Below are positions 28,445 to 54,595 of a stretch of DNA of 64,000 nucleotides, piece after piece. Every line of letters begins with the position of its first letter. Positions within the stretch are counted from its first letter, which is position 1. Origin of the DNA: Bacilli bacterium (GTDB lineage Bacteria > Bacillota_I > Bacilli_A > RF39 > UBA660); assembly GCA_017441845.1 (NCBI GenBank), contig JAFRVB010000009.1:38841-102840 (forward strand). Direction: 5' to 3'. The notes beneath the pieces are model-generated. The model saw only the letters and a list, made by a program, of their open reading frames with translations, ran no database searches and was not told the DNA's origin. A program made the position numbers and the translations under genes.

Positions 28445-30010
28445 ATGATAATAAGAAGACCATATGCATTCCTAATAAAACATTTCAAAATTATACATAT
28501 TATCCTATTAGTAATAGGTGGTTTTATTTTGTTAAAAAACTCATCTATTTCTAGCTATATAAAAGACTTTGTTACTTATGGTGTATATGATAGTATGAAT
28601 AATCCTATAACTAAGTATATACCAATATATTTATTTATAATTTTAATAGCAATGTCTGTCTTAAACATAACAGCAGTTTTTCTATTAAAGTATAAAGATA
28701 AACCATGGAAATTATATTTAATACCTACAATAACATATTTAGGTTTAATGATACTTTATGCATTATTGTTACTATACTTTAATGGATATAATGGAGTTTT
28801 TGAAAGAACTCAAATAGGTTTATATAAAGATTTATTAAATATATTTACAATTACTCAGCTACCTTCATTAATTATTTATTTAGTTAGATGTTTAGGTCTA
28901 GATCTAAAGAAATTTAATTTTCAGAATGATGATGAATTCTTAGAATTAGATGAAAAAGATCGAATGGAATTAGAAATAAATGTTAATGTTGATAAAGAAT
29001 CTATAAAAAGAGTATTTAGAAGATTTAAAAGAAATGCTGGTTATTTTGTAGAAGAACATAAAAAACTAGTTACAGTAGTTTCAATTATTTTAGTTGTTGC
29101 TATAGGATTGGTTATTTATAAGAATCAATTTATTACTAATAAGTCATATGGTATAAATGATGAATATAATGCTGGTAGATATACATTCAAAATAACTAAT
29201 GTTTATTACACTAATAAAAATTATACAGGAGAAGTTATTTCAAATTCTTCAGCTTTTGTTATCGTAAAACTTAATATTAGAAATAATTATGATGATGCGG
29301 TAGTAAAAGTAGATAGATTTCATCTATATAATGGAATAGAACAATATGCTGAATCTAGTAATCAAAATGCTGATAAGTTTATTGATTTAGGAAAAACTTA
29401 TGCTCAACAAACTATTTTAAAGAAAGGTGAAACAACAAGTGTAATTCTAATATATAGAGTTAATAAAAAATTAGATAAGAATAGATTTGTACTATTCTAT
29501 CAAGAACGTAATGGTAATGATTCACATTTAAGAAAGATAAAAATAAAAGTAGAAGATTTATCTACTATTAAAGACAATGGTATCTATAAATTAGGCACTG
29601 AAATAAAGGCTCCTGTCGTTGGTAGAGAAGAGGGAGAAATGCTTGCTCCAGATGGATTTAAAATACGAGATGCTGTTAAATATATGATGGCTGATTGTGA
29701 AAATGGATACTGTGAACAAGTAGAGCAAATTTTACGTGCCAAAGCAGGTTACAAAATCGCAGTAATATCATATATGACAGAAGAGTTTGACAGCAAAGAA
29801 CTCATTGACTTTTCTAGTAATTATGGTAAAATTAATTATATAGATAGTAATAATAAAAAATGCGGTGTCAAGATGAAAAAAGCAATGAATTATAGCTATC
29901 TAGGACAGTATGCTTATGTGTTTGTTCCTGAAGAGATAGAACAATCAAAAACAATCGATTTAGTATATACAATCAGAAACAATAGATATACATACAGAGT
30001 AAAAGGATAG
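28445..30010 (+). CDS. Multi-TM membrane protein with large extracellular beta-rich C-terminal region
   Basis: Four N-terminal TMs, a cytoplasmic linker, one further TM, then an extracellular domain with a Cys pair. Confidence 0.65.
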   Translation: MIIRRPYAFLIKHFKIIHIILLVIGGFILLKNSSISSYIKDFVTYGVYDSMNNPITKYIPIYLFIILIAMSVLNITAVFLLKYKDKPWKLYLIPTITYLGLMILYALLLLYFNGYNGVFERTQIGLYKDLLNIFTITQLPSLIIYLVRCLGLDLKKFNFQNDDEFLELDEKDRMELEINVNVDKESIKRVFRRFKRNAGYFVEEHKKLVTVVSIILVVAIGLVIYKNQFITNKSYGINDEYNAGRYTFKITNVYYTNKNYTGEVISNSSAFVIVKLNIRNNYDDAVVKVDRFHLYNGIEQYAESSNQNADKFIDLGKTYAQQTILKKGETTSVILIYRVNKKLDKNRFVLFYQERNGNDSHLRKIKIKVEDLSTIKDNGIYKLGTEIKAPVVGREEGEMLAPDGFKIRDAVKYMMADCENGYCEQVEQILRAKAGYKIAVISYMTEEFDSKELIDFSSNYGKINYIDSNNKKCGVKMKKAMNYSYLGQYAYVFVPEEIEQSKTIDLVYTIRNNRYTYRVKG

Positions 30011-30022
30011 AAGGGAAAAAAT

Positions 30023-31807
30023 ATGGAAAGACGTTATGACAAAATAATGACTAAAGTAACATACGTTATAGCTGCTATAGTAGTTTTACTAGTAGTATAT
30101 TTTGTTTTTGCTAAACCATATTTTACTTTCCAATCATATGAGAAAAAAATGCTTGCTGCTGCTCAAAGATATTATGAGATCAACTCATCTAAATTACCTA
30201 CAGGAAAAAGAGTTGATACTGTAGGATTATCAAAACTATATAATGAAAAATATATAGATCAAGATTTCACAGTACCTCTATCATCTAAGTTGTGTAACAT
30301 AAAAGATAGTTGGGTAAAAGTTAGAATGGAAGAATCTGATTATCAATATTATGTCTATTTAGATTGCGGTTATATGGAATCAAAAGTAGATCATGAAGGA
30401 CCTGTAATTAAATTAAATGGTGATAAAGAAATGACAATTACCAAAAAAGAGAAATTTACAGATCCTGGTATAAGCAGTGTTATTGATAAAAATGATGGAA
30501 AAATGAATGTTGGAGATGTAAAAGTATCTGGAGAAGTAGATACATCTGTAACAGGAATATATAAAATAAAATATTCTATTATGGATTCATTAACAAATAA
30601 AACAGAAGTAACTAGAGTAGTTAATGTAATAGATACAGTTGCATCAATCACAAAGAGAGAAAGTCAAAAAGGATATTATTCTGGTAATGCCAGTAATAAT
30701 CATATAGCTTTCGCTAATCATTTATATAGAATAATTGGATTAGATGGAGATAATGTAAAAATAGTTTCTGATGAAGTAGTAACTTTAAGTAATTATGATG
30801 CTATTAATAAACAATTAGAAAAGTATTATGATACTTTACCATCTAAAACTAAAAAACTAATAGTTAAAAATAAATATTGTAAAGATCAATTATCTACTAA
30901 AAATACAGATACAACAGAATGTTCAAGTTATACAGAAGAAAGAAATATGTATATTCCTTCACTTGCTGATATCAATAAAGTAAAAGCAGGTACTGATAAT
31001 TATCTAATTTCTCAAAACTTAATTTGGACAGCAAATACTGTTAAAGAAGATTATTCATACATGGTTGGAGAAAGTATGATGTACCTAAAAGGTAATATAA
31101 TTGCTATGAATAATTCGTACAATGCTGGAATAAAACCAGTTGTTACTATTAAAGGAGATTTAATAGTAGAAGATGGTGATGGATCGTTAGATAATCCATA
31201 TATCATTCAAAAAGATTTTAAATCTTCAAAACCAGGTGAAGAAGTAAATAAACGTTTACCTGGAGAATATATATCATTAGAGAGTGGAACTTGGGAAATA
31301 ATTGAAACGTTAGATGATGGAACTACAAAGATAATCCTAGATGGGGTTATTGAAACAGAAGAAGATCTTTTAACTTTCGCAAATCCAAGAACAAGTAATT
31401 ATGAATATGATCCTAAGAAAGTTGGTTCATATGCATATAATATCAATAATAAAGCAAATACATACTTACCATTTGATAAATTGGTAAGTCATGAAATAGA
31501 AATACCAGTATATGATGGAAAAATATTATATGGTAAAGAAAAGAAAACAATTAAACGTAAAGTAAAATTGTCAGCTGTTAATATTTATGATTTATATACT
31601 GTTGGAAATGGTGGATTTGAATATTTACCTATAAATGCATCAAAAGATAAAAATGAATTCTACATAATTAATGAAGAAGGAAATTTACAAAGACAGAAAT
31701 ATCTTCCAGATAGGGGATATGCTGTTAGACCTGTAGCGTTCTTAAAACAAGGCGCTAAGGTAGTAGAAGGTACTGGAAGAATCGATGAACCATACACAAT
31801 AAAATAG
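30023..31807 (+). CDS. Surface protein: TM, pilin-like Cys-pair domain, DUF5011-type Ig domain, two DUF6273-like domains
   Basis: AAQRYY...C...YYVYLDCG; PVIKLNGDKEM..DPG..SGEVDTSVTGIYKIKY; repeated (K/R)PV..(I/L)K....G.G..D.PY.I. Confidence 0.65.
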   Translation: MERRYDKIMTKVTYVIAAIVVLLVVYFVFAKPYFTFQSYEKKMLAAAQRYYEINSSKLPTGKRVDTVGLSKLYNEKYIDQDFTVPLSSKLCNIKDSWVKVRMEESDYQYYVYLDCGYMESKVDHEGPVIKLNGDKEMTITKKEKFTDPGISSVIDKNDGKMNVGDVKVSGEVDTSVTGIYKIKYSIMDSLTNKTEVTRVVNVIDTVASITKRESQKGYYSGNASNNHIAFANHLYRIIGLDGDNVKIVSDEVVTLSNYDAINKQLEKYYDTLPSKTKKLIVKNKYCKDQLSTKNTDTTECSSYTEERNMYIPSLADINKVKAGTDNYLISQNLIWTANTVKEDYSYMVGESMMYLKGNIIAMNNSYNAGIKPVVTIKGDLIVEDGDGSLDNPYIIQKDFKSSKPGEEVNKRLPGEYISLESGTWEIIETLDDGTTKIILDGVIETEEDLLTFANPRTSNYEYDPKKVGSYAYNINNKANTYLPFDKLVSHEIEIPVYDGKILYGKEKKTIKRKVKLSAVNIYDLYTVGNGGFEYLPINASKDKNEFYIINEEGNLQRQKYLPDRGYAVRPVAFLKQGAKVVEGTGRIDEPYTIK

Positions 31808-31820
31808 TAAGGAGATTATT

Positions 31821-32630
31821 ATGAAAAAAAATAAGAAAAAACGACAAAGAAAACGAATACTCATAATCTTATTTTTAATCATTTGTATTTTTCTAGTATT
31901 TATATTATTTAGAAATAATAAAGAATTTTATAAAGTTGAAGATAGAACAACTAATATAAAAGAAGAAAAGAAAAAAGATAATAATAAAGTTACAACTATA
32001 GGATGGATTAGAGTTCAAGGAACTAATATAGATGCTCCAATCGTTGCCTATTCAAAAGATTATGATTTCTATGAAGATTCAGTAGGTAAAAGTAATTTTG
32101 CTTACAACATTGAAACAACAGAAAAAATATACAATAAAGTTAATATAATGGGTCATAATATTTTGAATTTATCAAAGAATCCTAGAATAAAAGATAAGAG
32201 ATTCTCAAGATTTGATAATTTGATGGCTTTTGTATATATAGATTTTGCTAAAAAGAACAAATATATACAATATACAATAGATGGAGATAATTATTTATAT
32301 AAAATATATGCAGTTAGACTGTATAGTTCATACGATAAAGTTGAAACTGAAATCAAAAAAAGATATACTGAAAGTGCAATAGAAAAATATGTTAAAGAGA
32401 TAAAAAAAGATAGTATATATGATTATGATGTCAAGATAGATGGAAAAGATAATCTTATATCACTAATAACTTGTAGTAGATTCTATGGAGAAGATACAGA
32501 TTCCTCATTTGTTGTGGATGCAAGGATGGTAAGAAAAGGGGAACCAATAAAGAATTATACTGTTCAAGAAACAGATAATTATAAAAAGATTTTAAAAATA
32601 ATGAAAGGTGATGGAAAGAATGAAGTCTAA
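31821..32630 (+). CDS. Class B sortase
   Basis: N-terminal TM; TIGWIRVQGTNIDAPI, IMGHN, YKIYAV, LITC, R in VDAR (His-Cys-Arg triad). Confidence 0.85.
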   Translation: MKKNKKKRQRKRILIILFLIICIFLVFILFRNNKEFYKVEDRTTNIKEEKKKDNNKVTTIGWIRVQGTNIDAPIVAYSKDYDFYEDSVGKSNFAYNIETTEKIYNKVNIMGHNILNLSKNPRIKDKRFSRFDNLMAFVYIDFAKKNKYIQYTIDGDNYLYKIYAVRLYSSYDKVETEIKKRYTESAIEKYVKEIKKDSIYDYDVKIDGKDNLISLITCSRFYGEDTDSSFVVDARMVRKGEPIKNYTVQETDNYKKILKIMKGDGKNEV

Positions 32631-35600
32631 AGGAAGAAGAAAAGGAAAAGAACTTGCAATATTATTACTGATAGTAGCTGCTTTCGTTGGTGTGTTAATA
32701 TGGGGCAACCATCGAAGTAGTCAATCACTAAGAACACAATCAAGTGAGAAAAAAGCTGAAAGCCCTGTTAACTTCTATTACAAAATCGTTAACAAACAAA
32801 ATAGCAATGCTAATGATAAGTGTGTAGAAGGATTAGAAGTGTTGGGAGTAGGACTATGGAGATCTTCTGACGGTAAGGTACAAGTATATTGTGCACCTGG
32901 TACTGATCCAACTGTAGATGAATTTGGTTGGAATAACGGAAGTTTCAAATTAAGTCTTGGTACATCTCCACGTTCATATGTATGTAAAAAATCATATGAT
33001 GATGAAGACACTGAACTAGTAAAAACTTCTGCTGGAAATAGCGGTAAATTAAAAGTACACGCAGCATCAAACTATACTTATAAAGGAAAATCTTGTGATA
33101 AAGACAAATTCTATTATGAGTTTGATTTGAGTAAAGTTCCAGGAGATAGTGATAATGCTATAGACCCAGATGAGGTAACTTCAGGAAAAGACGCTGAAGG
33201 AAATCCAACTTCAATGACTGGTACAGTTAGTGTTAAGATTGATGATTTAATTGATAAAGCTGAACTAAAACCTGAGCAAGATGATCCGGAGGAAACTCTT
33301 GAAGATAAAACATCAGTAGTTGGTCAAAAAGGTGATTATGAAATTGTATCTCATTTAGATGGTAATGCAACATATAATACATATAAAAAAGCATTCGAGA
33401 GTATGTATAATGCTAGTCAACAAAAGGCTCGTACATATGTGTTTGAAGGAAACACTAAGAATGAAGCTGCTAAACAAACTAAAGACAAATCTGGAAAGAG
33501 TAAAACAATTTCATTATCTTGTAATTATAAATTAACAAGAACTGATATAACTAATATTGAAGCATATAATAGACGAGGATTGATAGATCAAAATAGTGGT
33601 AAGATATCATATTATTATTATGATAAAGCAAATTTGAATATGTATAAAGGTTATTGGGAGAAGACAACAAAAGAATCAATCCCATATAAATACCATTATA
33701 TGCCAGCTAAATTTAGTAATGATACATATCCAACAGTTGTTACTAAGTCAAAAGAGTTCAATTGTAAGAGAACATGTACCGAATATGTAAAAGTTGAATA
33801 TGGTCCACCTGTTCAAGTAGATGCAGGAATGTGTTTTGAATATAGATTAAAAGTAAGCAGTGTTACAAACTGTACTGCTACTGCTAATAAAGAACAAGCA
33901 AAACCTGAAACTTCAGGTAAGAAATGTGTATTAAAACCTAAATGTGGTGCTGGTTTAAGACAAGCAGGACCAACAGAAGATTTTGATAATTGTGTACAAT
34001 CATGCGACGGTGGAAAATACACTGAGGCATGTAGTAATAAATGTTACGATGAAGTATATGGAGAAGAAGATTCTAATAATGCTGAAAACGTAGCTTATGA
34101 TTCAACTACATTGCCATTAACTCAACAAGTTAAGTTCCCTAATAGTAAAGCACCATCACCTGGAAGTTTCTACTATAATGATAGTAATGGTAATGAAGTT
34201 TCACACAAAGGTGAAAGATGTGTAAGAGGACAACATTATGTTAATAGTAATGGTAAATATAGTTGGTGTCCATTAACTACAAGTGGAAAAGTTGGAATCC
34301 ACAACAATGGTAGCATCAGTACAAATCATTCAACTAAAAATGCTGTAGCTAAAGGATATATAGGAATTTGGTACTGGTATCAAAACTATCATACAATTTG
34401 GTTCAGTGACCATAGTTATGCTAGTGATGCTAGTGGAAATGGATATATTAGACATCAAACATCATCTGGTCAATGTAGAGATAAATGCTCATGGAATAGT
34501 GGATGTAATAAATATAATAGTTATTATTACTTCAACTACAACATAACAAACTCAATTGGAAAGAATAAAGATCAACGTTGTCCAAAAATGTATGTTTGGG
34601 ATAACAAAAACAACAAATATGTTAAAGAAAATATTTGTACAACAGATGATTTAATTAAAGCAGATATTAAGAACAACATGAAAATATATAATGAAAAAGT
34701 TGTAAAAGCCTGTGAAGGAAGAACATCTTGTGAAGAGAGAACTGCAGAATATACTATAGACTTTAAATATAAAGATAACGAAACACAAAAAGTCGATACT
34801 GTTCACTTCCCTTATACAAAATCTAAGGATGAAGTATACAGTAAAGATAAATCAATGCCTACACTTAATAACAATCCAGAAGTTATCATAAAATATGGTG
34901 GATGTTATTCAAATTATAATAACAGAAGATGGTATTATACTGAATGGACATTCCCAGGAACATGGTTACCATACAAAGGAGATTCAAGAGTTTATGGTAA
35001 ACCTGATGATACTTCACAATATAGTTTCGTAAAAGGTAAAGTATGTATACCACATAAATTATCTGATACAAATAAAGATTGGGCTAATTACTACATACAA
35101 CTTTTAAATAATACAAGTTTAGTTCCAGATAATAGTAAATGGAAATTCTATGAAAAAGATCCAAAAACAGAACAAGATTATAATGGATATAATATTTTCG
35201 GTAGTGCTAAGAATTTTGGTCTATTCAGATGGACATTCAATATGAAATGTTTCTATGCATTAACTAACAATCCAACTCCACCTGGAACAACAACAACTAC
35301 TAACAATGTTGACCCTTCTGCTGAACAAACAACAATTAAGACATATGACACTGCTGATCCATTCTTACAAAACACAGCAGTTGATCAAAGAGTTCAATAC
35401 AAGAAACAAACAAGAGCAATTGGATTTAACTGGACTTCAGCAGCAACTCTAGGTAAATATAAAGATGCTGGTGGAGGATATGATCAAAATCCATCACAAT
35501 TATTAAAGAAAATTCAAACAACTGATACATTCAGTCGTAGTAATTTAGATTTCGAGTTTAAACTAGATGTTAAAACATTAAGAAAACTAAGACAAGATAA

Positions 35601-35751
35601 ACGTTATAACTACAGTAAACCAAAATATACTTCTGATGGACATGGAGTATCACATTATACAAGTAGTTTATTACGTAACGGTATAACAAAAACAGTTTCA
35701 CACTTTAATAAGTGTAATAACAAAACATGTAAAGTTTTAGGAGGCGAATAA
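32620..35751 (+). CDS. Giant Cys-rich membrane-anchored surface protein (adhesin-like)
   Basis: Basic N-terminus, one TM, ~1000 aa extracellular with 29 Cys by manual count, no C-terminal sorting signal. Confidence 0.7.
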   Translation: MKSKGRRKGKELAILLLIVAAFVGVLIWGNHRSSQSLRTQSSEKKAESPVNFYYKIVNKQNSNANDKCVEGLEVLGVGLWRSSDGKVQVYCAPGTDPTVDEFGWNNGSFKLSLGTSPRSYVCKKSYDDEDTELVKTSAGNSGKLKVHAASNYTYKGKSCDKDKFYYEFDLSKVPGDSDNAIDPDEVTSGKDAEGNPTSMTGTVSVKIDDLIDKAELKPEQDDPEETLEDKTSVVGQKGDYEIVSHLDGNATYNTYKKAFESMYNASQQKARTYVFEGNTKNEAAKQTKDKSGKSKTISLSCNYKLTRTDITNIEAYNRRGLIDQNSGKISYYYYDKANLNMYKGYWEKTTKESIPYKYHYMPAKFSNDTYPTVVTKSKEFNCKRTCTEYVKVEYGPPVQVDAGMCFEYRLKVSSVTNCTATANKEQAKPETSGKKCVLKPKCGAGLRQAGPTEDFDNCVQSCDGGKYTEACSNKCYDEVYGEEDSNNAENVAYDSTTLPLTQQVKFPNSKAPSPGSFYYNDSNGNEVSHKGERCVRGQHYVNSNGKYSWCPLTTSGKVGIHNNGSISTNHSTKNAVAKGYIGIWYWYQNYHTIWFSDHSYASDASGNGYIRHQTSSGQCRDKCSWNSGCNKYNSYYYFNYNITNSIGKNKDQRCPKMYVWDNKNNKYVKENICTTDDLIKADIKNNMKIYNEKVVKACEGRTSCEERTAEYTIDFKYKDNETQKVDTVHFPYTKSKDEVYSKDKSMPTLNNNPEVIIKYGGCYSNYNNRRWYYTEWTFPGTWLPYKGDSRVYGKPDDTSQYSFVKGKVCIPHKLSDTNKDWANYYIQLLNNTSLVPDNSKWKFYEKDPKTEQDYNGYNIFGSAKNFGLFRWTFNMKCFYALTNNPTPPGTTTTTNNVDPSAEQTTIKTYDTADPFLQNTAVDQRVQYKKQTRAIGFNWTSAATLGKYKDAGGGYDQNPSQLLKKIQTTDTFSRSNLDFEFKLDVKTLRKLRQDKRYNYSKPKYTSDGHGVSHYTSSLLRNGITKTVSHFNKCNNKTCKVLGGE

Positions 35752-35754
35752 TAT

Positions 35755-36270
35755 ATGAATAAAGGTGTATTAGGATTAGGAATAATATTATTAGGCTCTG
35801 TAGCTTTACTAATAATATTTGTAATATCAAATTATTCTACAGGAGGAGAAGTTGATTATTATCTAGTAAAGGAAACATCCGAGGCTGCTATGACAGAAGC
35901 CTTGGATGAGACCTTCATGTCAGTTCATGGAATTCCAAGAATGGACAAAGAATTATTTATGGAATCTTTCATAAGAAGATTTGCTAATAATGTTACTGAT
36001 ACAAGAGAATATACAATAGGATTCTATGGAATGAATGAAGTACCACCTACAGTAAGTGTTAAAGTTGATTCAATGACACTAATTAGTGTTAAAGTAGGAG
36101 ATGAACAATCAGCACAAGAAATAACAACAAGTATTAGTCAATTGGTTGAAACAAATCAAACTTATAATCCATCATTGACATATCAATATACAAATAAGAA
36201 GAGTTTTATTGGATCGCCAATTACTGCTGATGGTAATCAAATAATACTTAGTCCAAAGGTAATAAGTTAG
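35755..36270 (+). CDS. DUF5411-like minor pilin/Tad accessory protein
   Basis: N-terminal hydrophobic helix; YYLVKETSEAAM..A.D, KELFMESFIRRFA, NEVPPTVSVKV. Confidence 0.6.
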   Translation: MNKGVLGLGIILLGSVALLIIFVISNYSTGGEVDYYLVKETSEAAMTEALDETFMSVHGIPRMDKELFMESFIRRFANNVTDTREYTIGFYGMNEVPPTVSVKVDSMTLISVKVGDEQSAQEITTSISQLVETNQTYNPSLTYQYTNKKSFIGSPITADGNQIILSPKVIS

Positions 36271-36284: not shown

Positions 36285-37070
36285 ATGAATGGTTTAAAAA
36301 AATTGTTGGCTAACAAAAATACAGTAACTGTAATTGGTATAGTTGTTGTAATTGCAGTACTATATTTTGCTTATAACTGGCGTGTAAATCAAGCAACAAA
36401 CCCTATAACAGTACCATATGCATTAAAGACAATTTCTCCTGGTACACAGATAACTGAAGATATGGTTGGATCTATGAAGGTTTCACCATCTATGGTTACT
36501 GAAGGAGTAATTACTACAGCTGGAGATGTTGTTGATAACTATTCTAATGCTGATACTGTTATACCTGAAGGAAGTTTGTTCTTCAAAAGAACAGTAGTAA
36601 CAAAAGAACAATTACCAGCAGCAGATATCCTTGATATTGAAAAAGGATATGTTGTATATAACATGGCTGTTGATACTAAAACTACATATGGTAACTCAAT
36701 TTATCCAGGAAATTATATTGATATTTATTTAAAAATATTAAAAAATCCAAAAGAAGAAAATGCTTCTATGTATGTTGGTAAATTGATTGAAAATATTAAA
36801 GTATTAGCTGTAAAAGATGAAAAAGGACAATCAGTATTCTCTAATAGAGACGAAGAAAAAACACCAGCTATGATCATCTTTGCAGTACCAGAAAAATATT
36901 TCAATCTGCTAAAGAAAGCTGAGTATTTAGATAGTAGTTATCAATCACAATTAATACCAGTTCCAACAAATGAATCAAAAGAAGAAACACCTGGAGAAAT
37001 TAATATTTCTAGTGAAAAATTAGAAAAATTTATTGAACAAGTAACACGTTCAGAAAATATTATTAGATAA
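36285..37070 (+). CDS. Flp pilus assembly protein CpaB/RcpC-like (SAF domain)
   Basis: TM, then VPYALKTISPGTQITEDMV SAF signature; GNSIYPGNYIDI and IENIKVLAV RcpC motifs. Confidence 0.8.
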   Translation: MNGLKKLLANKNTVTVIGIVVVIAVLYFAYNWRVNQATNPITVPYALKTISPGTQITEDMVGSMKVSPSMVTEGVITTAGDVVDNYSNADTVIPEGSLFFKRTVVTKEQLPAADILDIEKGYVVYNMAVDTKTTYGNSIYPGNYIDIYLKILKNPKEENASMYVGKLIENIKVLAVKDEKGQSVFSNRDEEKTPAMIIFAVPEKYFNLLKKAEYLDSSYQSQLIPVPTNESKEETPGEINISSEKLEKFIEQVTRSENIIR

Positions 37071-42321: not shown

Positions 42322-42345
42322 TAAATTTGTTTACTATTTTTTTTT
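42317..42345 (+). terminator. Terminator after pilin 1
   Basis: AATAGTAAA-tttg-TTTACTATT-TTTTTTT. Confidence 0.7.
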
Positions 42346-42425
42346 GTAAACAAAAGTAAGAATAATTGATATTTTTCCCTTGATTTGATATACTTATTAT
42401 GATAATAATAAGAGATGTGATTCAT

Positions 42426-42887: not shown

Positions 42888-42913
42888 TAGTATGGCCTGA
42901 AAGAAGGGATTAG

Positions 42914-45121: not shown

Positions 45122-45154
45122 GATAGAATAATAAAAAAAGGAGTGTGATACTAC

Positions 45155-46031: not shown

Positions 46032-47821
46032 GTTTAAATTTTAGAAGTCAAGTAGCCCCAAAAGGTTTAAGTTTTTCACCAAGTGATTTTTACATAAGTG
46101 ATCATTATGCAACTATTTTAACAGTAGTTTCATATCCAAAATATATTTTACCTGGTTATTTATCATCTTTAACTAATATGTCTGGAATTAAGGTTGTTGT
46201 AAAACATATACCAGTTCCATTTACAGATATGGCTAAGATGTTAAATAAACAAGTTGCAGAATTAAGAGAACAATATAAAAATGAACGTGATCAAACTGCC
46301 AGAGAACGTATTAGACAAGATGCTGAATCTTTAGAATATTTCACATCAATGCTAGCTGGTTCTCAAGCTAAAATATTTGATTATCAAATGCATATCATGA
46401 TTACAGCAGGAACAAAAGAAGAATTAGAAATTAAAAAAATTAATGTTAAGAATTATTTAGATGCGATGGAATTAAAAGCAGTATCACTACGTTTTGAACA
46501 AGAAAAGGTATTAAAATCAATTTTACCTGTCTTTCCAAAACAAGATATTGAAGAGAGAATTGGTACACCAATACCAAGTGTAACAATTTCAGCTATGTAT
46601 CCATTCATCTTCGATAGTGTAAAAGATCCAGGATTATCAACACTACTTGGTGTAGATTTCTCTGGAGGAGTTATATTATTTAATCAATTCTTATATAAAA
46701 TTAGAAAAGAAAACAATAGAAATAACGCTAATATGATTATTTTAGGTACATCTGGTTCTGGTAAATCTACAGCAGCTAAATTGATGCTTAGAACTCATAT
46801 TAGAAATGGATGTCAAATAGTAATAATCGATCCAGAAGATGAGTTGAGAGAAATGACTCAAACTTTTGGAGGAGATACAGTAGATATTGGTAAAGGTGGA
46901 GAATTTGGACTTATCAATCCATTAGAAGTGGTAATAGATGCTGATGAAGAAGAAATTAGACAAGGACTTGGTTATACAGTATTGACGAGAACACTTCAAT
47001 TCTTAAGAGCATTTATGACATACTATGATCCATCTATGCAAGATGATGTTCTTACAATGTTTTCTGAAGTAGTACAAGATACATATAAACGTTTCGGAAT
47101 AGATTTTAATACAGATTTCTCTAGATTTACATCAGAGGATTATCCAACATTTAGTGATGTATACGCTACTATAAAGGGACGTTTAATGGCAATGACTGAT
47201 CAAACACATGAAAAAGATATTATGGAAAGATTAGAGTTAAAAGTTAGACCTATCGTAAATGAATTAAAATTCTATTTTGATGGTAAAACTACTCTAAGAA
47301 AAGATTCTGATTTTATGGTATTTAATATTAAAGAATTAATGAATTCTGATTCTAATATTAGAAATGCACTATTCTTTAATGTATTAAAATATGCTTGGAG
47401 TCTATGTTTAGACTTCAATGTAAATACAGTACTAATGGTTGATGAAGCACATGTTTTATTAGGAGATAAGAACGCTTTAGGAGCTGAATTCTTATCACAA
47501 GTACAAAGACGTGCTAGAAAATATAATACTGGTACAATTCTAATTACACAGCAACCATCAGACTTTGTTGCGAATGAACAAATCTTGATGCATGGTAAAG
47601 CTATTTTCGATAATGCTTCATACTATTTAGTAATGGGCTTAAAGAAACAAGCTGTTGAAGATTTAAGTTTATTAATAGATTTAAACGAAAGTGAAAAAGA
47701 GGGTATTAAGAGATATTCTCAAGGAGAAGCACTATTTGTCTGCGGTAATAAACGTATGCAAATAAATGTTGCTGTAACTAAAGAAGAATTAGAATCATTC
47801 GGTTCTGGAGGAGGTTTCTAG
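46028..47821 (+). CDS. virB4: VirB4/TrsE-like T4SS ATPase
   Basis: Walker A GTSGSGKS, IDPEDE, INPLE, Walker B MVDEAH, RRARKY, ITQQPSDF. Confidence 0.9.
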   Translation: MSLNFRSQVAPKGLSFSPSDFYISDHYATILTVVSYPKYILPGYLSSLTNMSGIKVVVKHIPVPFTDMAKMLNKQVAELREQYKNERDQTARERIRQDAESLEYFTSMLAGSQAKIFDYQMHIMITAGTKEELEIKKINVKNYLDAMELKAVSLRFEQEKVLKSILPVFPKQDIEERIGTPIPSVTISAMYPFIFDSVKDPGLSTLLGVDFSGGVILFNQFLYKIRKENNRNNANMIILGTSGSGKSTAAKLMLRTHIRNGCQIVIIDPEDELREMTQTFGGDTVDIGKGGEFGLINPLEVVIDADEEEIRQGLGYTVLTRTLQFLRAFMTYYDPSMQDDVLTMFSEVVQDTYKRFGIDFNTDFSRFTSEDYPTFSDVYATIKGRLMAMTDQTHEKDIMERLELKVRPIVNELKFYFDGKTTLRKDSDFMVFNIKELMNSDSNIRNALFFNVLKYAWSLCLDFNVNTVLMVDEAHVLLGDKNALGAEFLSQVQRRARKYNTGTILITQQPSDFVANEQILMHGKAIFDNASYYLVMGLKKQAVEDLSLLIDLNESEKEGIKRYSQGEALFVCGNKRMQINVAVTKEELESFGSGGGF

Positions 47822-47845
47822 ACCATATAAAAAGAAGGTGAGGAA

Positions 47846-50176
47846 ATGGCATCATATCAAGCTAATAGAGATGGTATGGATGGTGGAGACAGAGCTGCTC
47901 AAAGCTATTCAGATCAGAAAAAAGCTGAAGATAAGAGAAGCGATGAAAATAATGCTAAAAACATACAAAATGCTGCTGATGTTGCCATTGCTTCCAAAAA
48001 TCCTTATGCTATGGCTGCAGGAGCAGCTGTAAAAGGTGCAGATAAAGTTACTGGTGGAAAAGCCTCAAAAGCTCTAGGTAAAGCACTTACTAGATCTAAC
48101 AAATTTAATCCTGCTGGTAAAAAAATCCAGGATGCTTCTAATAAATTAAGTGAAAGTGGAGCAAGTGATGCCATTGGCAAAGTTGCTTCAATGAAAGGTG
48201 GCGCTGGAGGTGCCGAAGCAGGAACAGCAGGGGCAGCCGGTAAAGCTAATGCTGCAAGTGATATGTCAAAAGCAGGAGGAGGACCAGAAAGTTCTCTTCC
48301 TTCTTCTAGTGGAGAAGGCTCTGCTTTAGATAAAATAGGTGGAGGAAAGAAGTCTAGTTCTAAAGATTCCTCAAAACCAGAAGAAAAACCATCTGATCCA
48401 GGAGAAGGAAACTATGATTTTTCTAAAGGTTTATTAAAGATGATAATGGCTAATCCAGTAGCTATTGCTTTAGTTTTTGGATTACCAATCTTAATCGCAA
48501 TATCATTCATGACAGTAATGTTAATCAACAGTATAGAAGAAGATTCTAAATATGAAGATGCTCTAGCAGTTTCAACAGCTACAGGAGGCGCCACAGGTTA
48601 TACACAATATAATTCAATGAATGATGAATTTAGAGATTATATTCAAAGAGTTATAGGTGTTACTGGAGACGATGGAACTAGTGATAGTTATACTTCATAT
48701 AATGATAGTCCATATCTAATTGTTGTCGGAACAGTACATGTCATAATGGATAAAGATGGTACTTATACTTATGAATATTTTACTAATGGTAAATTAAGAA
48801 AAATAGCTAGAGCGGTCGCTGGAGATGAACAAGGTACTAAAACTAATCTAGCTAATAATATTTTTCCAAAATATTTCCCTGGATTATCTCAAGGAGAATA
48901 TGAGAATTTAGCTGATAGAGTATTTGAATATATTACTAATTATTATAGTTATATAGGTGCCAATCGAAATAGTGGAGTATGTGTTCCTACATCTACTAGT
49001 AATTGTACTTATGGAATAAAAGGATTCTATATTCCTGGAAAAGGTAATGTTAAAGAAGAACTAAATCTTAATAATGTTAAAGTTAGAATAATGGATTGTA
49101 ATGATAGTTCTAAAGCTGTTGCTGGTGAAGATTTAGTTGATTTTGAAAAATATGTTTTAGGTGTTGCTTATGCTGAAAATGAAGGGGCACCTGAAGAAGC
49201 TTTTAAAACACAATTGATTGCGGCTCGTAGTTTTATTCTTGCTAGACATGCTGATATGGGTGGCAAGATTAAAAAAGAGGGCGATAACTATATAATAGAA
49301 GCTAGATCATGTACTAAAGATCAAGTTTATTGTAATCCTGATTTAGGATGTTCAAAAACTAATGGTAACATGCGAAGTGGAACTGATTATACTTTATATA
49401 AGAAAGCTATTCCAAGTGATAGTAAATATCGTTCTTGGGCAAAAGAAGTAGAAGGAAAAGTTCTACTTAATGATCAAGGTTATGTTGTTTATACTGGCTA
49501 TAAACGAAAAGAACAAACTCAATTTAATTCTTTAGCAAAAGCAGGAAAAGATTATAAACAAATATTACTTGAAGTATATAGTTCTTCTAAAGCTTCTAGT
49601 ATTGGAGGATCTAGTTGTTCAACTTCAGAAGCATGTGCTTCAGTAGGTACAGCAGCCTCAGGAGACTATACAACGTGGAAACAAACAAATAGTTTATGGG
49701 GAAGTATACCTTTAGGTAATTCTTCAACAGATATAGCTAATTCTGGTTGTACAGTAACTTCTATTGCTATGCAGATAAAAAGAAGTGGAGTAGACACTTC
49801 TAATGTTCAAGGAGATTTTAATCCAGGTACTTTTGTTCAAGGATTAAATAAAATTGGTGGATTTGCTGATAATGGAGGAATAATTTGGGAAAAAGTAACT
49901 GAATTAGTTCCACACTTTAAATATATAACTACTAAAGAAGTAAGAGGTAAAACTCAAGAAGAAAAATTAAATGAATTAAGAAATTTAGTAGGAAAAGGAT
50001 ATTATGTAGTTGCTGAAGTTAAAGGAGCAACCCAAAACTCACAACACTGGGTTGCTGTAAATCAAGTAGTAGGAAATACTATTACAATGATGGATCCAGG
50101 TTCTTCAGCAACAGATATGTGGAAAACATATGACCCTGTTAAAACAACATTCTTTGTATGTTATAAAGCTGATTAG
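47846..50176 (+). CDS. Membrane-anchored cell-wall hydrolase: SpoIID/LytB-like plus peptidase C39-like domains
   Basis: G/A/S-rich N-terminus, TM; FEKYVLGVAYAEN...EAFKTQLIAARSF...DQVY; WKQ..WG..LG...SGCTVTSIAM...HWV...DPG. Confidence 0.75.
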   Translation: MASYQANRDGMDGGDRAAQSYSDQKKAEDKRSDENNAKNIQNAADVAIASKNPYAMAAGAAVKGADKVTGGKASKALGKALTRSNKFNPAGKKIQDASNKLSESGASDAIGKVASMKGGAGGAEAGTAGAAGKANAASDMSKAGGGPESSLPSSSGEGSALDKIGGGKKSSSKDSSKPEEKPSDPGEGNYDFSKGLLKMIMANPVAIALVFGLPILIAISFMTVMLINSIEEDSKYEDALAVSTATGGATGYTQYNSMNDEFRDYIQRVIGVTGDDGTSDSYTSYNDSPYLIVVGTVHVIMDKDGTYTYEYFTNGKLRKIARAVAGDEQGTKTNLANNIFPKYFPGLSQGEYENLADRVFEYITNYYSYIGANRNSGVCVPTSTSNCTYGIKGFYIPGKGNVKEELNLNNVKVRIMDCNDSSKAVAGEDLVDFEKYVLGVAYAENEGAPEEAFKTQLIAARSFILARHADMGGKIKKEGDNYIIEARSCTKDQVYCNPDLGCSKTNGNMRSGTDYTLYKKAIPSDSKYRSWAKEVEGKVLLNDQGYVVYTGYKRKEQTQFNSLAKAGKDYKQILLEVYSSSKASSIGGSSCSTSEACASVGTAASGDYTTWKQTNSLWGSIPLGNSSTDIANSGCTVTSIAMQIKRSGVDTSNVQGDFNPGTFVQGLNKIGGFADNGGIIWEKVTELVPHFKYITTKEVRGKTQEEKLNELRNLVGKGYYVVAEVKGATQNSQHWVAVNQVVGNTITMMDPGSSATDMWKTYDPVKTTFFVCYKAD

Positions 50177-50188: not shown

Positions 50189-50992
50189 ATGAAAAAAAAT
50201 ACTCAAGTCGCAATAATAGTAATTATTTCATTGACAATATTCTTGTTAGTATTTTTCCTATTCTCTAATAGAGATGGAGTAGTTTTTACTTCTTCTAAGA
50301 GTGAAGGCTATTTAATAGTAGGTCAAAACTCTATGTTTTCTTATCATAATAAGAAAATATATAATGTACCAATCAATAGTAATGTAATGAAAGAATTAGA
50401 TTGGAATGAATTCAAAGTATTAGATAATTATAAAGTTAAAGGAAATTATCTAATGCACTTTGATGAAAAATGGTATTTATTTACTAAAGATAGAAAAGCT
50501 GTTACTTATGAAAGTGATAGTATTATAGCTTATAAAGCTAATTATAAAATGAACTATGTATATAAAGAATCTATTCCTATAGTAGATAATGAATATGTAG
50601 AGAAAGTTGCTGATAAAAAAGGTGTGGCAGCAGAAAATTTAACTGTTAATGAAGAAGTAAATATGGATATAGATAATGATGGTAAAAATGAAACTTTCTA
50701 TCTAATAAGTACAGCTTTACCAGTAATACCTACAGAGGATAAAGAGTACTCTATAGTATTCATGGTTAAAGATGGCAAAATCTATAATATTTATGATACT
50801 TTAGTAGCTAAAATAATTCCTGATATATGTCAACCTAAGATAGAAGGATTTATTAATTTAAATGAAAATAATAAGTATGAAGTAATACTTTCTTGTAGTA
50901 CGATTGGACCTCGTGAACAAAAAGTTTATTTGTATGAAATGACTAAGAAAAATGGTAATTTACAATTTGAATTAAAAGCATCTAATACATAG
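50189..50992 (+). CDS. Single-pass membrane protein with DIDNDGKNE Ca-binding-like motif
   Basis: N-terminal TM; DxDxDG motif; Cys pair. Confidence 0.6.
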   Translation: MKKNTQVAIIVIISLTIFLLVFFLFSNRDGVVFTSSKSEGYLIVGQNSMFSYHNKKIYNVPINSNVMKELDWNEFKVLDNYKVKGNYLMHFDEKWYLFTKDRKAVTYESDSIIAYKANYKMNYVYKESIPIVDNEYVEKVADKKGVAAENLTVNEEVNMDIDNDGKNETFYLISTALPVIPTEDKEYSIVFMVKDGKIYNIYDTLVAKIIPDICQPKIEGFINLNENNKYEVILSCSTIGPREQKVYLYEMTKKNGNLQFELKASNT

Positions 50993-51042: not shown

Positions 51043-53298
51043 ATGAAACTAAAATTACGTGTTGATTCAGATGATTTATTAATGTTTGGTGTATTTGCAG
51101 TATTCTTACTATATGTAATAGCTGTATTAATTTTAAATGTTTCACATTTAGCATCAGAAGGTTCATTATCTGGATTAAACCCATTTCCAGCTTTTGGTCC
51201 TAAATATATAGCAATTACTATACCTTTATGGCTACTAGGATTAGGTGCCATTCTTTTCAGTGTTAAATCATATATCTTTGAAAGAGATACAGGAATAGGT
51301 TTAACTACTGAAAAAGTATCTAAAGGTTATTCAAGATGGGCAAAAGATAAAGAAGTTCAAAATGATGCAGACATGATGGAAATAGATGTCTATGATAAGA
51401 ATGTTAAAGGTGCAGGAGTACCATTAATACTTAAAAAAGATAAACTTTGGGTAGATAATGGAGAATATCATACTTTAGTTATTGGATCTACTGGTTCAGG
51501 TAAAACTCAAACAGTAGTTTTCCCTATGGTTAGAGTTCTAGCTCGTCATGGAGAAAGTATGATTATTACTGACCCTAAAGGTGAAATCTATGAAAAGACA
51601 GCTAATATGCTTCGTAAAAAAGGTTATCAAATATTATTATTAAACTTCCGTGATCCTCAAAGAGGTAATGCTTGGAATCCGATGAGCCTACCTTATAGCC
51701 TATATCAACAAGGAAATCAAGATAAAGCTATCGAGTTATTAGATGACTTAGCACTAAATATTTTGTATGATGCTTCATCTAATCAACAAGATCCATTCTG
51801 GGAGAAAACTTCAGCTGATTACTTCGCAGGTATTGCCCTAGGTTTATTTGAGGATGCTAAACCAGAGGAAATAAACATCAATTCTATTTCTTTAGCCACA
51901 ACAGTTGGTGAAGAAAAGTTTGGTGGTTCTACATATATTAAAGAATATTTTGGAGATAAAGATCCAAGAAGTGCTGCTGCAATTGATGCATCTTCTACTA
52001 TAATGGCACCAGATGATACAAAAGATTCAATTCTAGCAGTATTCAAACAAAAAATTAAATTGTTCGCTTCACGTGAAAATTTAAGTGAAATGTTATCTTA
52101 TTCTGATATAGATATATCTACTATCGGAGAAAGAAAAACAGCTGTATTTATCGTTATTCAAGATGAAAAGAAAACATATCACGCCTTAGCGACAATTCTA
52201 TTAAAACAAATTTATGAAACACTTATTTCAACAGCTCAAAAACATGGTGGAAAACTACCAGTTAGAACAAACTTCATCTTAGATGAGTTTGCCAACATGC
52301 CACCATTAAAAGATGTTACTACTATGATTACCGCAGCTCGTTCTCGTAAGATAAGATTTACAATGATTATTCAAAACTATGCTCAATTAGATCAAGTTTA
52401 TGGTAAAGAAGAAGCTGAAACTATACGTGGTAACTGTGGTAACTTAATTTACTTATTAACTACTGAGTTAAAAGCCTTAGAAGAAATATCTAAGATGTGT
52501 GGTGAGGTTAAATCTAAGAAAGATGATAAAACAGCTTCAACACCTTTAGTAACAGTTTCAGACTTACAAAGAATGAAGAAGTTTGACGTTATCATTATGC
52601 GTACAAGACTTCAACCATTCAAAACACACTTTACTCCAGATTTTCAAATAGATTGGGGAGAAAAACCTCCTAAATCTGGATATCCAACTAGAGAAAAACG
52701 TGAAATTCATACTTTCGATATAAAACAATTTGTTAAAGATACTAAAAAGAAAAAATTATTAGAAATGATGAATCAAGATACATCTGGTTCAAATGATTCT
52801 AGAGGTGGAGGAGCTAAACCTGTACCACCAATAAGTCCATTTGAACAAAGAATTAAAGAAAAACAAGCTGAAATCAGTAAAGAAGATTCTAATATTACTC
52901 ATGAAATACCAAAACCAAGTATTGATATAAAAGAAAATGATAAGAGTTCTATCGCAATGAGTAAAGAAGAATTAAAAACAACACCATTTGGTCAATTTAA
53001 TAATGAATCAGTAATTAAACCTAATCCATTCCCATCTATCGATGTTAAAGAAGATGAAGATGATCAAGATGAATTAGAATTTGATGTGGATGAATTAGTA
53101 AAGAAAATAGATGCTAAAATAGCCGAACTAGAAAGAGAAGAAGCCTTAGAACGTCAAAAATCTAAATCCAAAGGAGCATCCTCAACTAAAGAGACTACAC
53201 CGGTTGTTGAAACTCCTCAGCAAAAACCAACTAATCTTAACTTAGAAGAATTAGATGAAGATGATGATGATTTCTTTGATGATTTCTTTGATAATTAG
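51043..53298 (+). CDS. virD4: VirD4/TraG-like type IV coupling protein
   Basis: Two N-terminal TMs, HTLVIGSTGSGKT, ITDPKGE, WNP, FILDEFAN, ARSR, IQNYAQL..YG; long acidic tail. Confidence 0.92.
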   Translation: MKLKLRVDSDDLLMFGVFAVFLLYVIAVLILNVSHLASEGSLSGLNPFPAFGPKYIAITIPLWLLGLGAILFSVKSYIFERDTGIGLTTEKVSKGYSRWAKDKEVQNDADMMEIDVYDKNVKGAGVPLILKKDKLWVDNGEYHTLVIGSTGSGKTQTVVFPMVRVLARHGESMIITDPKGEIYEKTANMLRKKGYQILLLNFRDPQRGNAWNPMSLPYSLYQQGNQDKAIELLDDLALNILYDASSNQQDPFWEKTSADYFAGIALGLFEDAKPEEININSISLATTVGEEKFGGSTYIKEYFGDKDPRSAAAIDASSTIMAPDDTKDSILAVFKQKIKLFASRENLSEMLSYSDIDISTIGERKTAVFIVIQDEKKTYHALATILLKQIYETLISTAQKHGGKLPVRTNFILDEFANMPPLKDVTTMITAARSRKIRFTMIIQNYAQLDQVYGKEEAETIRGNCGNLIYLLTTELKALEEISKMCGEVKSKKDDKTASTPLVTVSDLQRMKKFDVIIMRTRLQPFKTHFTPDFQIDWGEKPPKSGYPTREKREIHTFDIKQFVKDTKKKKLLEMMNQDTSGSNDSRGGGAKPVPPISPFEQRIKEKQAEISKEDSNITHEIPKPSIDIKENDKSSIAMSKEELKTTPFGQFNNESVIKPNPFPSIDVKEDEDDQDELEFDVDELVKKIDAKIAELEREEALERQKSKSKGASSTKETTPVVETPQQKPTNLNLEELDEDDDDFFDDFFDN

Positions 53299-53308
53299 GA
53301 GGTAAATT

Positions 53309-54577
53309 ATGGAAATTAACTTTAATGAAGGAAAAAAAGAATTAGATAATGTCCAAGAAACTGAAACTCAAGAAGAAGAAATGATTTCAGAAGATGGTGA
53401 AATAATTACTGATTATGAAGAAGATACTACTGATTATGAAAAGATTAAACAAGATAGAAATAAAGAAGAATTAAAAGGACAAATAAAAAAACTATTAATT
53501 ATAGCTGGTGTTATTCTAGGTATTATATTGTTCTTTATACTAATTGTTAGTTTATTTATGAAAAAATCATATACTTATGACGATGTTGAATTAGTAATGA
53601 AGAATGCTACTCAAAAATACTTTGTAGAGTATAAAAACTATCTACCTAAAGAAGAAGGAGATACTAGAAATGTACCTGTAGATAATTTAGTAGCTGGCAA
53701 ATATATGAAAGAATTATCATACTATTTACCAAATGATACTTGTACAGGACGTGTAACAGTAGAAAAAACAGCTGATAGTTATGACTATAGACCTTATCTA
53801 AATTGTGGAGAAAGTTATCAAACAATAGAGTTATATAAGAAAGTAGCAGGTGATGATAATATCGTTACTTCAGGTTATGGATTATATAATCTATATGGTA
53901 ATTATGTATTTAGAGGAGAAGATGTTAATAACTTTGTTAAATTAGGTGATAATCTATGGAGAATATTCAAAGTAACATCTGATGGAAATATCGGTCTAGT
54001 TTATCATGATCGTATCAGTTATTCGTCTCTAAGTTGGGATGATAGATACAATAAAGCTAAAGATTATAATATAGGTATAAATAATTATGTAACAAGTAGA
54101 GTAAAAGAAAACTTAGAAAAACTATATAATAATAAATTAGATGAAGAAGATGAGTTTAAATTATTAAATTCTAATCATAAAGAAAAATTAGCTAGATTTG
54201 ATTTATGTGTAGGTAAACGTGCTCATAAAGATAATACTAATAATAATTCTACTGAGTGTAGTGAGAAAGTTAATGATCAATTAATAGGTTTATTAACAAT
54301 ATCAGATTACATGCAAGCATCTCTAGATACTAGTTGTACTTTAACTTTATCAGAGAGTTGTCAAAACTATAATTATTTAAATACTGATTTTGCATGGTGG
54401 TTTGTTACTGCTGATGCGGCTAATACTTATGATGCTTATAACTTTACTCCAGAATACGGAGTACAAACTAAACATACTAGTAGTAGTGCTTATCTAAGAC
54501 CAGTAATCTACTTAAAGAACAATGTATTCTATAAGAGTGGAAAAGGTACTTTAGAAAAACCTTATAAAATTAAATAG
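53309..54577 (+). CDS. Surface protein paralogous to 30023 (acidic N-terminus, TM, pilin-like Cys domain, DUF6273-like)
   Basis: MKNATQKY...C...YRPYLNCG; C-terminal LRPVIYLK...GKGTLEKPYKIK. Confidence 0.65.
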   Translation: MEINFNEGKKELDNVQETETQEEEMISEDGEIITDYEEDTTDYEKIKQDRNKEELKGQIKKLLIIAGVILGIILFFILIVSLFMKKSYTYDDVELVMKNATQKYFVEYKNYLPKEEGDTRNVPVDNLVAGKYMKELSYYLPNDTCTGRVTVEKTADSYDYRPYLNCGESYQTIELYKKVAGDDNIVTSGYGLYNLYGNYVFRGEDVNNFVKLGDNLWRIFKVTSDGNIGLVYHDRISYSSLSWDDRYNKAKDYNIGINNYVTSRVKENLEKLYNNKLDEEDEFKLLNSNHKEKLARFDLCVGKRAHKDNTNNNSTECSEKVNDQLIGLLTISDYMQASLDTSCTLTLSESCQNYNYLNTDFAWWFVTADAANTYDAYNFTPEYGVQTKHTSSSAYLRPVIYLKNNVFYKSGKGTLEKPYKIK

Positions 54578-54595
54578 AGTCGTAAGACTCTTTTT
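54576..54595 (+). terminator. Terminator; right border of locus
   Basis: AGAGTC-gtaa-GACTCT-TTTT. Confidence 0.8.

Follow-up and report, generated by a model that had tools for sequence, protein, structure and literature searches.

Do the Tad-like secretion genes and the type IV secretion system (T4SS) that lie back to back in a reduced-genome member of the Bacilli make up one machine, and what would such a machine be for? The locus in question occupies positions 28445-54577 of a 64,000-nt window, which is the whole stretch of DNA analysed here, and comprises 23 open reading frames (ORFs), all on the + strand, with intergenic gaps of -32 to +77 nt. No long competing ORFs were found on the - strand across the same interval. 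A sequence-only reading had proposed a hybrid surface apparatus of Tad/Flp pilus, sortase, giant adhesin and T4SS, a joined architecture that it did not know as a described system. Its gene-level observation is confirmed here, and its interpretation is supported in part. We consider it probable that the locus is a single inherited unit, namely a chromosomal, vertical descendant of the conjugative T4SS class of plasmids pLS20, pAW63 and pBMB67, which is free of a relaxase and carries a native, divergent Tad-type module. On this reading, the T4SS core of this plasmid class is natively accompanied by a very divergent Tad-type module, and the machine of the RF39 lineage has lost its relaxase and mobility genes and been kept as a core set.

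The window is contig C5 of a 0.78-Mb assembly of 27% GC and was read with translation table 11. Genetic code 4 was considered and rejected: TGA closes 74 long ORFs, and the split in VirB4 described below is a true frame change. Among close relatives of the host are Mycoplasma sp. CAG:877 and Candidatus Faecimonas gallistercoris, whose genus is GTDB CAG-877 of the order RF39 (PMC8035907). The host is thus an RF39-type gut Bacilli, as the earlier proposal of a reduced-genome Bacilli lineage had it. Comparisons were made within a family sample of 25 genomes (the window's own and 24 others) and an order sample of 401 genomes from 145 genera. G-numbers denote the genomes of relatives, among them G024, which belongs to another genus and is 98% complete, and G037, which belongs to another family (f14).

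The joined architecture is present on Bacillaceae plasmids: the same gene set is found on pBMB67 and on a Priestia koreensis plasmid and, by literature, on pLS20 and pAW63. On pBMB67, a conjugative Bacillus thuringiensis plasmid with a MobP3 relaxase, tblastn recovered VirD4 (E 3e-67), the N-terminal part of VirB4 as a separate ORF (E 1e-11) and the body of VirB4 (VirB4-C, E 4e-81), together with the SAF/CpaB protein (g06, E 4e-21), the T2SSE ATPase (E 7e-34), a TadB-like protein (E 2e-10) and a TadC-like protein (E 5e-4). The annotation of this plasmid adds TrbL, PrgI, DUF5411, an AAA_31 TadZ-like ATPase and DUF4320. The order on the Priestia plasmid is Ig-like adhesin, DUF5411, SAF, AAA_31, CpaF/VirB11, T2SSF, membrane protein and DUF4320. 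Gene 37 of pLS20 is described as a 'VirB11 homolog' and lies beside small membrane proteins of unknown function, 36 and 38-41 (PMC8557374), whilst the VirB11-like ATPase of pAW63 is CDS22, within CDS19-23 (PMC1196294); pili are mentioned in neither paper (see also PMC9673590). Because the same joined set sits on conjugative plasmids of Bacillaceae, we regard the Tad-like and T4SS genes as one inherited unit. The architecture is therefore known at the level of gene order and had not previously been read as Tad-like. Our literature search found no paper tying RF39 or RFN20 to a T4SS or pilus, and a single paper that mentions DUF5411.

Moreover, the two halves belong together among the relatives, as the sequence-only reading had supposed. 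The secretion ATPase of the Tad-like block (g07) and VirB4 co-occur in 23/24 other genomes of the family, and in a synteny survey the ATPase lay no more than 10 kb from VirB4 in 55 of 58 close species whose upstream flank was available over the full 10 kb; 2 more of these species have an insertion between the two blocks. The identities of the ATPase and VirB4 co-vary (r = 0.89), and the T4SS half is neither patchy nor placed beside a relaxase, contrary to what the sequence-only reading had named as its refutation. Breakpoints between the blocks vary by genus, and in G012 genes g11-g12 go with the T4SS block. One genome, G005 (92% complete), holds the ATPase block at 58% identity with no match to VirB4-C, which may reflect loss of the T4SS half or an assembly gap. 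Mobile elements show related combinations. In G032 an element resembling an integrative and conjugative element (ICE) carries a thioester (TED) adhesin, the ATPase, two transmembrane (TM) proteins, TrbL, VirB4 and ArdC, and a stretch of no more than 16 kb on G016:C3 combines a T2SSF-like protein and a CpaF-like ATPase of 36% identity with a full-length VirB4 and a relaxase. Both are mobile cousins of the conserved locus.

The locus lies between greA (27715-28194) and rmuC (54653-55726), and the flanks of the window are housekeeping in character (KsgA, rhomboid, RuvX, MltG, U32 peptidases, a dGTPase-like HD protein, GreA and RmuC). Neither an integrase nor an att repeat was found at the locus or in its flanks, and the nearest, and only, tRNA is 27 kb off. 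The whole locus is colinear from greA to rmuC in G024, and rmuC follows it in 62/64 species. Across the order, VirB4-C was detected at E <= 1e-150 in 380/401 genomes and 137/145 genera, and it is carried by at least 554 species representatives. For both VirB4 (Pearson r = 0.86) and the ATPase (r = 0.81), identity to the window correlates with that of GyrB, with mean identities of 72% for GyrB, 75% for VirB4 and 68% for the ATPase. Against the closest relative, dN/dS was 0.027 for VirB4-C and 0.036 for greA, 0.07-0.22 for the other core genes measured and 0.31-0.47 in the adhesin head. Taken together, these sequence comparisons show a locus that is vertically inherited and core, under strong purifying selection. 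One linked locus, on G037:C76, has a VirB4-C 70% identical to that of the window with a GyrB only 60% identical, for which transfer between families or a quirk of taxonomy is possible.

Relaxases were sought in the 25 family genomes with five queries, the MobP3 protein of pBMB67, PF03389, PF02486, PF03432 and PF01076. The first three gave no match. PF03432 was found only beside extra, unsplit ICE-type VirB4 genes and doubles as an internal positive control. PF01076 was found in 6 family genomes, outside the locus where position was compared; in G006 it is on the locus contig, about 25 kb away. All five types are absent from 16/25 genomes. There is no relaxase in the locus, nor beside it among the relaxase matches compared, and no oriT search was made. 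These results bear out the earlier proposal of a relaxase-free T4SS, with neither relaxase nor integrase in the locus or nearby. The extra ICE-type T4SSs were seen on G001:C45, G016:C3 and C22, G022:C2, G033:C28 and G034:C1, with an unsplit VirB4 (frames of 780-850 aa) and a PF03432 relaxase a few kb away.

Listed next are the genes of the T4SS block, all on the + strand.

g13, 41980-42321, +: VirB2-type T4SS pilin candidate A (PF18895, E 0.0095; Mbov_0395 family, E 0.003)
g14, 42399-42887, +: T4SS pilin candidate B, signal peptide present (PF18895, 26.8 bits; cut-off 26.6)
g15, 42914-45121, +: VirB6/TrbL-type channel protein (PF19597, TrbL_4, E 5e-6; Mbov_0396, E 8e-6)
g16, 45155-45481, +: PrgI/VirB3-like small membrane protein (position and motif)
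g17, 45450-46031, +: N-terminal VirB4 domain as a separate polypeptide (NF045975 positions 92-279, E 1e-16)
g18, 46028-47821, +: VirB4 ATPase body (NF045975 positions 295-893, E 1e-103)
g19, 47846-50176, +: wall hydrolase in the VirB1 slot, with a SpoIID/LytB domain (PF08486, E 5e-6, above cut-off) and a possible C39-like peptidase domain (PF11814, E 0.06)
g20, 50189-50992, +: 267-aa N-terminally anchored protein, possible VirB8-slot component
g21, 51043-53298, +: VirD4 coupling protein with a long acidic low-complexity tail (PF02534, E 3e-56; NF045973, CD1115 family, 312 bits against a cut-off of 250)
g22, 53309-54577, +: 422-aa N-terminally anchored surface protein, paralogue of g02, in 72/80 loci

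Scans with Pfam and NCBIfam confirmed the labels that the sequence-only reading had given to the Ig-like protein, sortase, DUF5411, CpaB, T2SSE ATPase, VirB6, VirB4, SpoIID hydrolase and VirD4. Others needed adjustment. The two proteins called VirB2 match PF18895 only at or below its cut-off and are kept as candidates. PrgI stays as a likeness for g16, which holds the position of the 'PrgI family' protein of pBMB67 and shares with it a short N-terminal motif, N-YLIP-N-K; its match to TcpE is weak. The ORF described as TrsD-like (g17) is instead the N-terminal part of VirB4. It overlaps g18 by ATGA in a different frame, and the split is kept in all relatives and in pBMB67. For g19 the SpoIID domain was upheld and the C39-like domain is a weak match; the protein has no relative in the PDB by sequence. 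No Pfam or PDB match was obtained for g20, which is kept in 63/80 loci at about 32% identity. The coupling protein g21 carries a TraG-D_C domain. By its VirB4, VirD4, VirB6-like protein, PrgI-like protein and hydrolase the locus belongs with the Gram-positive conjugative-type T4SSs (MPF FA/FATA; pLS20/pAW63 class).

A second wall hydrolase lies 20 kb upstream of the T4SS, at 21825-22757 on the + strand. It is a 310-aa NlpC/P60 protein (PF00877, E 1e-14) whose N-terminal ~110 aa resemble pilin candidate A (BLASTP, 30%, E 3e-6), with a hydrophobic hairpin and a terminal Cys, so that the hydrolase bears a fused pilin-like domain. For its small size the genome also has an unusual gene 12 kb upstream of the locus (14006-16339, + strand), which encodes a hybrid sensor kinase with HisKA, HATPase_c, receiver and Hpt domains.

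The Tad-like module precedes the T4SS core.

g05, 35755-36270, +: DUF5411 protein, N-terminally anchored, pseudopilin-like (PF17424, E 3e-39)
g06, 36285-37070, +: CpaB/RcpC-type SAF-domain protein (PF16976, E 6e-9, above cut-off; TIGR03177, E 2e-12)
g07, 37096-38397, +: hexameric secretion ATPase of the CpaF/TadA-FlaI-VirB11 clade (PF00437, E 2.5e-27)
g08, 38417-39319, +: divergent TadB-type platform protein with a single T2SSF-like domain (hhalign)
g09, 39309-40121, +: second platform protein, TadC-like, paralogue of g08 (hhalign)
g10, 40184-40342, +: 52-aa pilin-like protein with the invariant N-terminus MKAATG-ELNLTVIT and no Flp EY motif
g11, 40359-40886, +: 175-aa pseudopilin-like protein in which a hydrophobic helix and a Cys-containing domain come after MRDAxGG
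g12, 40911-41924, +: 337-aa TadZ/CpaE-like protein, an N-terminal alpha/beta domain and a MinD/ParA-fold domain with degenerate Walker A GIRNATDHAGATT

The DUF5411 gene g05 is the first of the family-wide core and is kept in all relatives examined; DUF5411 occupies the same position in pBMB67 and the Priestia plasmid. The best PDB match of the ATPase g07 is CpaF (76 bits), followed by FlaI (73 bits) and VirB11 (57 bits), its top NCBIfam match is VirB11 (113 bits), and its identity across the family is 56-87%. For the platform pair g08 and g09, sequence-profile searches found no match to PF00482 (T2SSF) or in the PDB, and shallow alignments showed no mutual similarity by hhalign. The latter worked only once the g08 family held remote homologues (359 matches among 1.84 billion representative proteins), and Pfam T2SSF matches none of 19 such homologues. 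With the patchy canonical Tad loci of the family as a yardstick, the g08 family matched canonical TadB with an hhalign probability of 97.7% (E 1.4e-12) and canonical TadC at 96.1% (E 3e-9), the control comparison of canonical TadB with TadC giving 97.4% (E 1e-11). The g09 family matched the g08 family with a probability of 97.4% (E 1.3e-11) and canonical TadC at 53% (E 1.4e-4). Moreover, the Priestia homologue of g08 matches PF00482 (E 3.4e-5), as do, weakly, the g09 orthologues in G021, G005 and G018. Since the profile-profile comparison matches canonical TadB and TadC, we take the pair to be real but highly divergent, and the TadB and TadC labels, given without a Pfam match, hold.

The AlphaFold model of g12 (pLDDT 81) retrieved MinD, ParA, BcsQ and FlhG by Foldseek (probability 1.0, E about 1e-4), and no PDB match was found by sequence-profile search. 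The Walker A lysine is missing in all 14 orthologues compared. The model therefore suggests a MinD/ParA fold in a TadZ/CpaE architecture, with a P-loop that is probably dead, and g12 is probably a TadZ-like pseudo-ATPase; the CpaE-like label agrees with this fold, from which its support comes, and the nucleotide-binding motif does not follow it. The Flp G/xxxxEY motif is absent from g10 and the TadE motif from g11, in which no Glu follows MRDAxGG; these are the proteins that had been labelled Flp-like and TadE-like. The positional counterpart of g11 on the plasmids is DUF4320. The locus has no gene for an A24 prepilin peptidase (TadV/CpaA); in each of the other family genomes a single A24 gene lies elsewhere, adjoining a canonical PilC. 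Separate, compact canonical Tad loci with Flp, two TadE, TadZ, TadA, TadB and TadC occur in 9/24 family genomes.

Canonical Tad loci listed (L137-L144): G013:C7, G006:C3, G023:C6, G022:C1, G007:C14, G009:C12, G005:C14 and G017:C12

Their Flp carries G-QALVEY, their TadE G-QALVEF and their TadZ an intact P-loop, KGGVGKTT. With such loci lying elsewhere, and with its motifs, P-loop and PF00482-blind platform as described, the locus does not encode, in canonical form, the Tad/Flp pilus first proposed. Genes g05-g12 are a Tad-derived module and not a member of the canonical Tad/Flp family.

Upstream of the core stands a head of four genes (28445-35751), restricted to two genera, the window's own and that of G024.

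g01, 28445-30010, +: 521-aa polytopic membrane protein with an extracellular domain (weak DUF4352)
g02, 30023-31807, +: 594-aa N-terminally anchored surface protein with a bacterial Ig-like domain (PF16403, E 9e-17)
g03, 31821-32630, +: sortase, class B-like, with a TLxTC-type motif 'LITC' (PF04203, E 6.5e-7; SrtB model TIGR03064, E 3e-14, below cut-off)
g04, 32608-35751, +: 1047-aa extracellular protein directly upstream of DUF5411, with exactly 29 Cys

The first gene is present only in G001-4, G024 and, partly, G006 (dN/dS 0.31). The surface proteins g02 and g22 are paralogues by BLASTP in both their C-terminal (E 2e-5) and N-terminal domains (E 4e-5). The count of 29 Cys in g04 given by the earlier reading is exact. 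This protein has no family match in the Pfam and NCBIfam scans, and its identity is 28-47% even inside the genus (dN/dS 0.47). A match to A_deamin (E 8.5e-5, below cut-off) was set aside as spurious. In other genera the slot 5' of DUF5411 is taken by secreted, Cys-rich proteins of 708-1296 aa that are unrelated to g04, with a C-terminally anchored protein of ~220 aa encoded ahead of them; the plasmids too have a large adhesin there. The position directly upstream of DUF5411 is thus a swappable adhesin slot, and the head as a whole, with sortase and adhesin, is specific to this lineage. A C-terminal sorting signal (motif, TM segment and basic tail) was seen in none of the proteins of the locus, and membership of the sortase in the machine is therefore not demonstrated. 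The sortase and giant adhesin that the sequence-only reading counted into the machine are present as genes, in a lineage-specific head with no substrate in the locus. Likely sortase substrates are encoded on other contigs, as large surface proteins ending in [NV]PxTG, a TM segment and a basic tail.

[NV]PxTG surface-protein candidates: C2:9713-15670, C4:76196-77668, C4:116014-117243, C11:6613-9189 and C11:30423-32084

The boundaries and one internal signal were located as follows.

28358-28390, +: upstream boundary, hairpin ATAGTTAAC/GTTAACTAT and T-run after a 53-aa ORF downstream of greA; likely intrinsic terminator, read directly
54576-54596, +: downstream boundary, hairpin AGAGTC-GTAA-GACTCT and T-run just before rmuC, read directly
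41927-41955, +: sigma-70 promoter TTGACA-17-TATAAT, perfect consensus, preceding the first T4SS pilin gene, g13

A terminator scan called neither boundary hairpin, their stems being AT-rich or short and under its G+C threshold. Of the earlier description, the tightly packed same-strand genes stand, and the 'clean terminators' become plausible ones with weak stems. A promoter with at least 11/12 matching positions is found at the g13 site in 50/75 related loci and in 5/300 background windows. A weak hairpin and T-run lie 3' of pilin candidate A. The GC content is 0.30-0.335 across the locus, with flanks of 0.25-0.28; in the T4SS half (42000-50000) it is 0.31-0.335, with flanks of 0.23-0.28.

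Some results weigh against a single, vertically inherited, relaxase-free machine with a Tad-type module. The window's own genome is only 67.5% complete. In three more distant genera (G012, G013 and G018) the two blocks lie on different contigs with long flanks, and physical linkage, though common, is therefore not a requirement. The AlphaFold model of g08 is poor (pLDDT 62) and its fold search was empty. The relaxase negative covers the five query types; a non-canonical relaxase (HUH/Rep, DDE or tyrosine recombinase) may be present. Lastly, the pilin g10 has no canonical prepilin motif, and G037 has the locus and no A24 peptidase gene; for these two reasons a processed filament is unproven.

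The separation of the blocks in G012, G013 and G018, together with the strong conserved promoter between them, is what would be expected of two independent neighbours, a Tad-type adhesive pilus and a T4SS that each work alone. We judge this quite unlikely, given their co-occurrence in 23/24 family genomes with co-varying identities, the same pairing on unrelated plasmids and ICE-like elements, breakpoints that differ by genus, and the separate canonical Tad loci in 9/24 genomes. An active or recently integrated ICE might account for the conjugation-type gene content and for a GC slightly above that of the flanks. However, the locus occupies the same greA-rmuC site across genera without integrase, relaxase, tRNA or att repeat, at 95% prevalence and with GyrB-like divergence, and on this synteny and prevalence we reject an ICE as scarcely credible.

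As to function, chromosomal DNA could be conjugated between RF39 cells by a non-canonical DNA-processing enzyme, in the manner of the relaxase-independent chromosomal transfer of mycoplasmas. VirD4 belongs to a conjugative coupling-protein family and has the TraG-D_C domain, the closest homologues are all conjugation systems, and the T4SS proteins resemble those of Mollicutes ICEs; against this, the five tested relaxase types are absent from 16/25 genomes and the Pfam and NCBIfam scans revealed no candidate nuclease or Rep gene in the locus. On balance we find such conjugation unlikely, if a serious competitor. Far more improbable is DNA uptake by a competence machine like Helicobacter ComB or archaeal Ced/Ted. 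A reduced genome, probably of a nucleotide scavenger, and the lack of a relaxase would suit such a role, as would weak similarity to CedD/CedB among the NCBIfam matches. But ComEC and canonical PilB/PilC/PilD are present in all 24 other family genomes, so that DNA uptake already has its own machinery, which argues against this role, and the conserved VirD4 coupling protein points to export. To our knowledge, ComB-type importers lack a VirD4 coupling protein.

We therefore return to a domesticated conjugation machine, which the gene content suggests to be a contact-dependent transfer organelle. Nearly all relatives conserve the locus as strictly as they do housekeeping genes, for which reason its probable role lies in contacts that the cell itself makes with others. 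We infer from the parts that the Tad-like motor and platform would build the 52-aa pilin, with DUF5411 and g11 as minor subunits, into a short filament or pseudopilus. This filament could cross the wall, present the fast-evolving Cys-rich or Ig-like adhesins and dock the cell on a partner. The hydrolase would open the wall, VirD4 would recruit a cytoplasmic substrate, and VirB4 and VirB6 would push it out via the channel. Since most genomes have no canonical relaxase, that substrate is most likely a protein or nucleoprotein.

A bolder version, which we put forward as possible but doubtful, is that RF39 depends on this relaxase-free machine as a core contact organelle, in which the Tad-derived module makes a filament of a new class, with the pilin N-terminus MKAATG-E, to display fast-evolving Cys-rich adhesins, and the T4SS delivers protein or nucleoprotein to partner bacteria or host cells. 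By extension, pLS20-type genes 36-41 would encode an unrecognised Gram-positive conjugation pilus. Descriptions of Gram-positive T4SSs generally give them neither a VirB11-type ATPase nor pili. The locus and its plasmid relatives show a whole Gram-positive T4SS class with a Tad-derived ATPase, platform and pilin module. Few uncultured lineages with reduced genomes are as common in animal and human guts as RF39, and the whole order of these abundant small-genome bacteria devotes about 3% of the genome to a relaxase-less copy. Conservation of this copy at the level of GyrB is a pointer to a contact-dependent trait that is obligate. Such a trait could explain resistance to cultivation, and growth might be reached by way of co-culture partners or host attachment.

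Among known systems, Tad/Flp (type IVc) pili share with g05-g12 the CpaF-clade ATPase, T2SSF pair, CpaB, MinD-fold TadZ-like protein, pilin and pseudopilins, and the order tadA-tadB-tadC-pilin. In contrast to them, the module here has no Flp/TadE motif and no dedicated A24 peptidase, its Walker A is degenerate and its platform invisible to PF00482, and it is always associated with a T4SS. The T4SSs of Mollicutes ICEs (Mbov_0395/0396/0397) give the best NCBIfam matches for the pilin-like, VirB6-like and VirB4 proteins and, with the minimal Gram-positive T4SSs (PrgI, PrgJ, PrgH; Tcp), share the wall hydrolase and VirD4. However, both are without the secretion ATPase and platform module; VirB4 is split here, and scores fall below the equivalog cut-offs. 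Patescibacteria/Saccharibacteria have a conserved relaxase-less T4SS, which would resemble the locus in being of conjugation type and a core feature of a reduced genome, in another phylum and with another envelope. An epibiotic or predatory life, with which the sequence-only reading had called its inference consistent, is conjectural for RF39.

The nearest counterparts are the tra regions of Bacillaceae plasmids (pAW63/pXO2/pBT9727/pBMB67 type and pLS20 family). These carry a relaxase (MobP3 or MOBL) and genes for replication, partition and regulation, whereas the locus described here is chromosomal, at a fixed site, relaxase-free and vertical in ~95% of the order. Protein identities between them are low (22-34%), the TadZ here lacks a P-loop and is shifted behind the pilins, and the Tad-like block precedes the T4SS, which comes first on the plasmids. 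Both have an adhesin, DUF5411, SAF/CpaB, a TadZ-like protein, the ATPase, two T2SSF-like proteins and small N-anchored proteins, and both join these to a CD1115-family VirD4, VirB6/TrbL, PrgI, a split VirB4 and a wall hydrolase.

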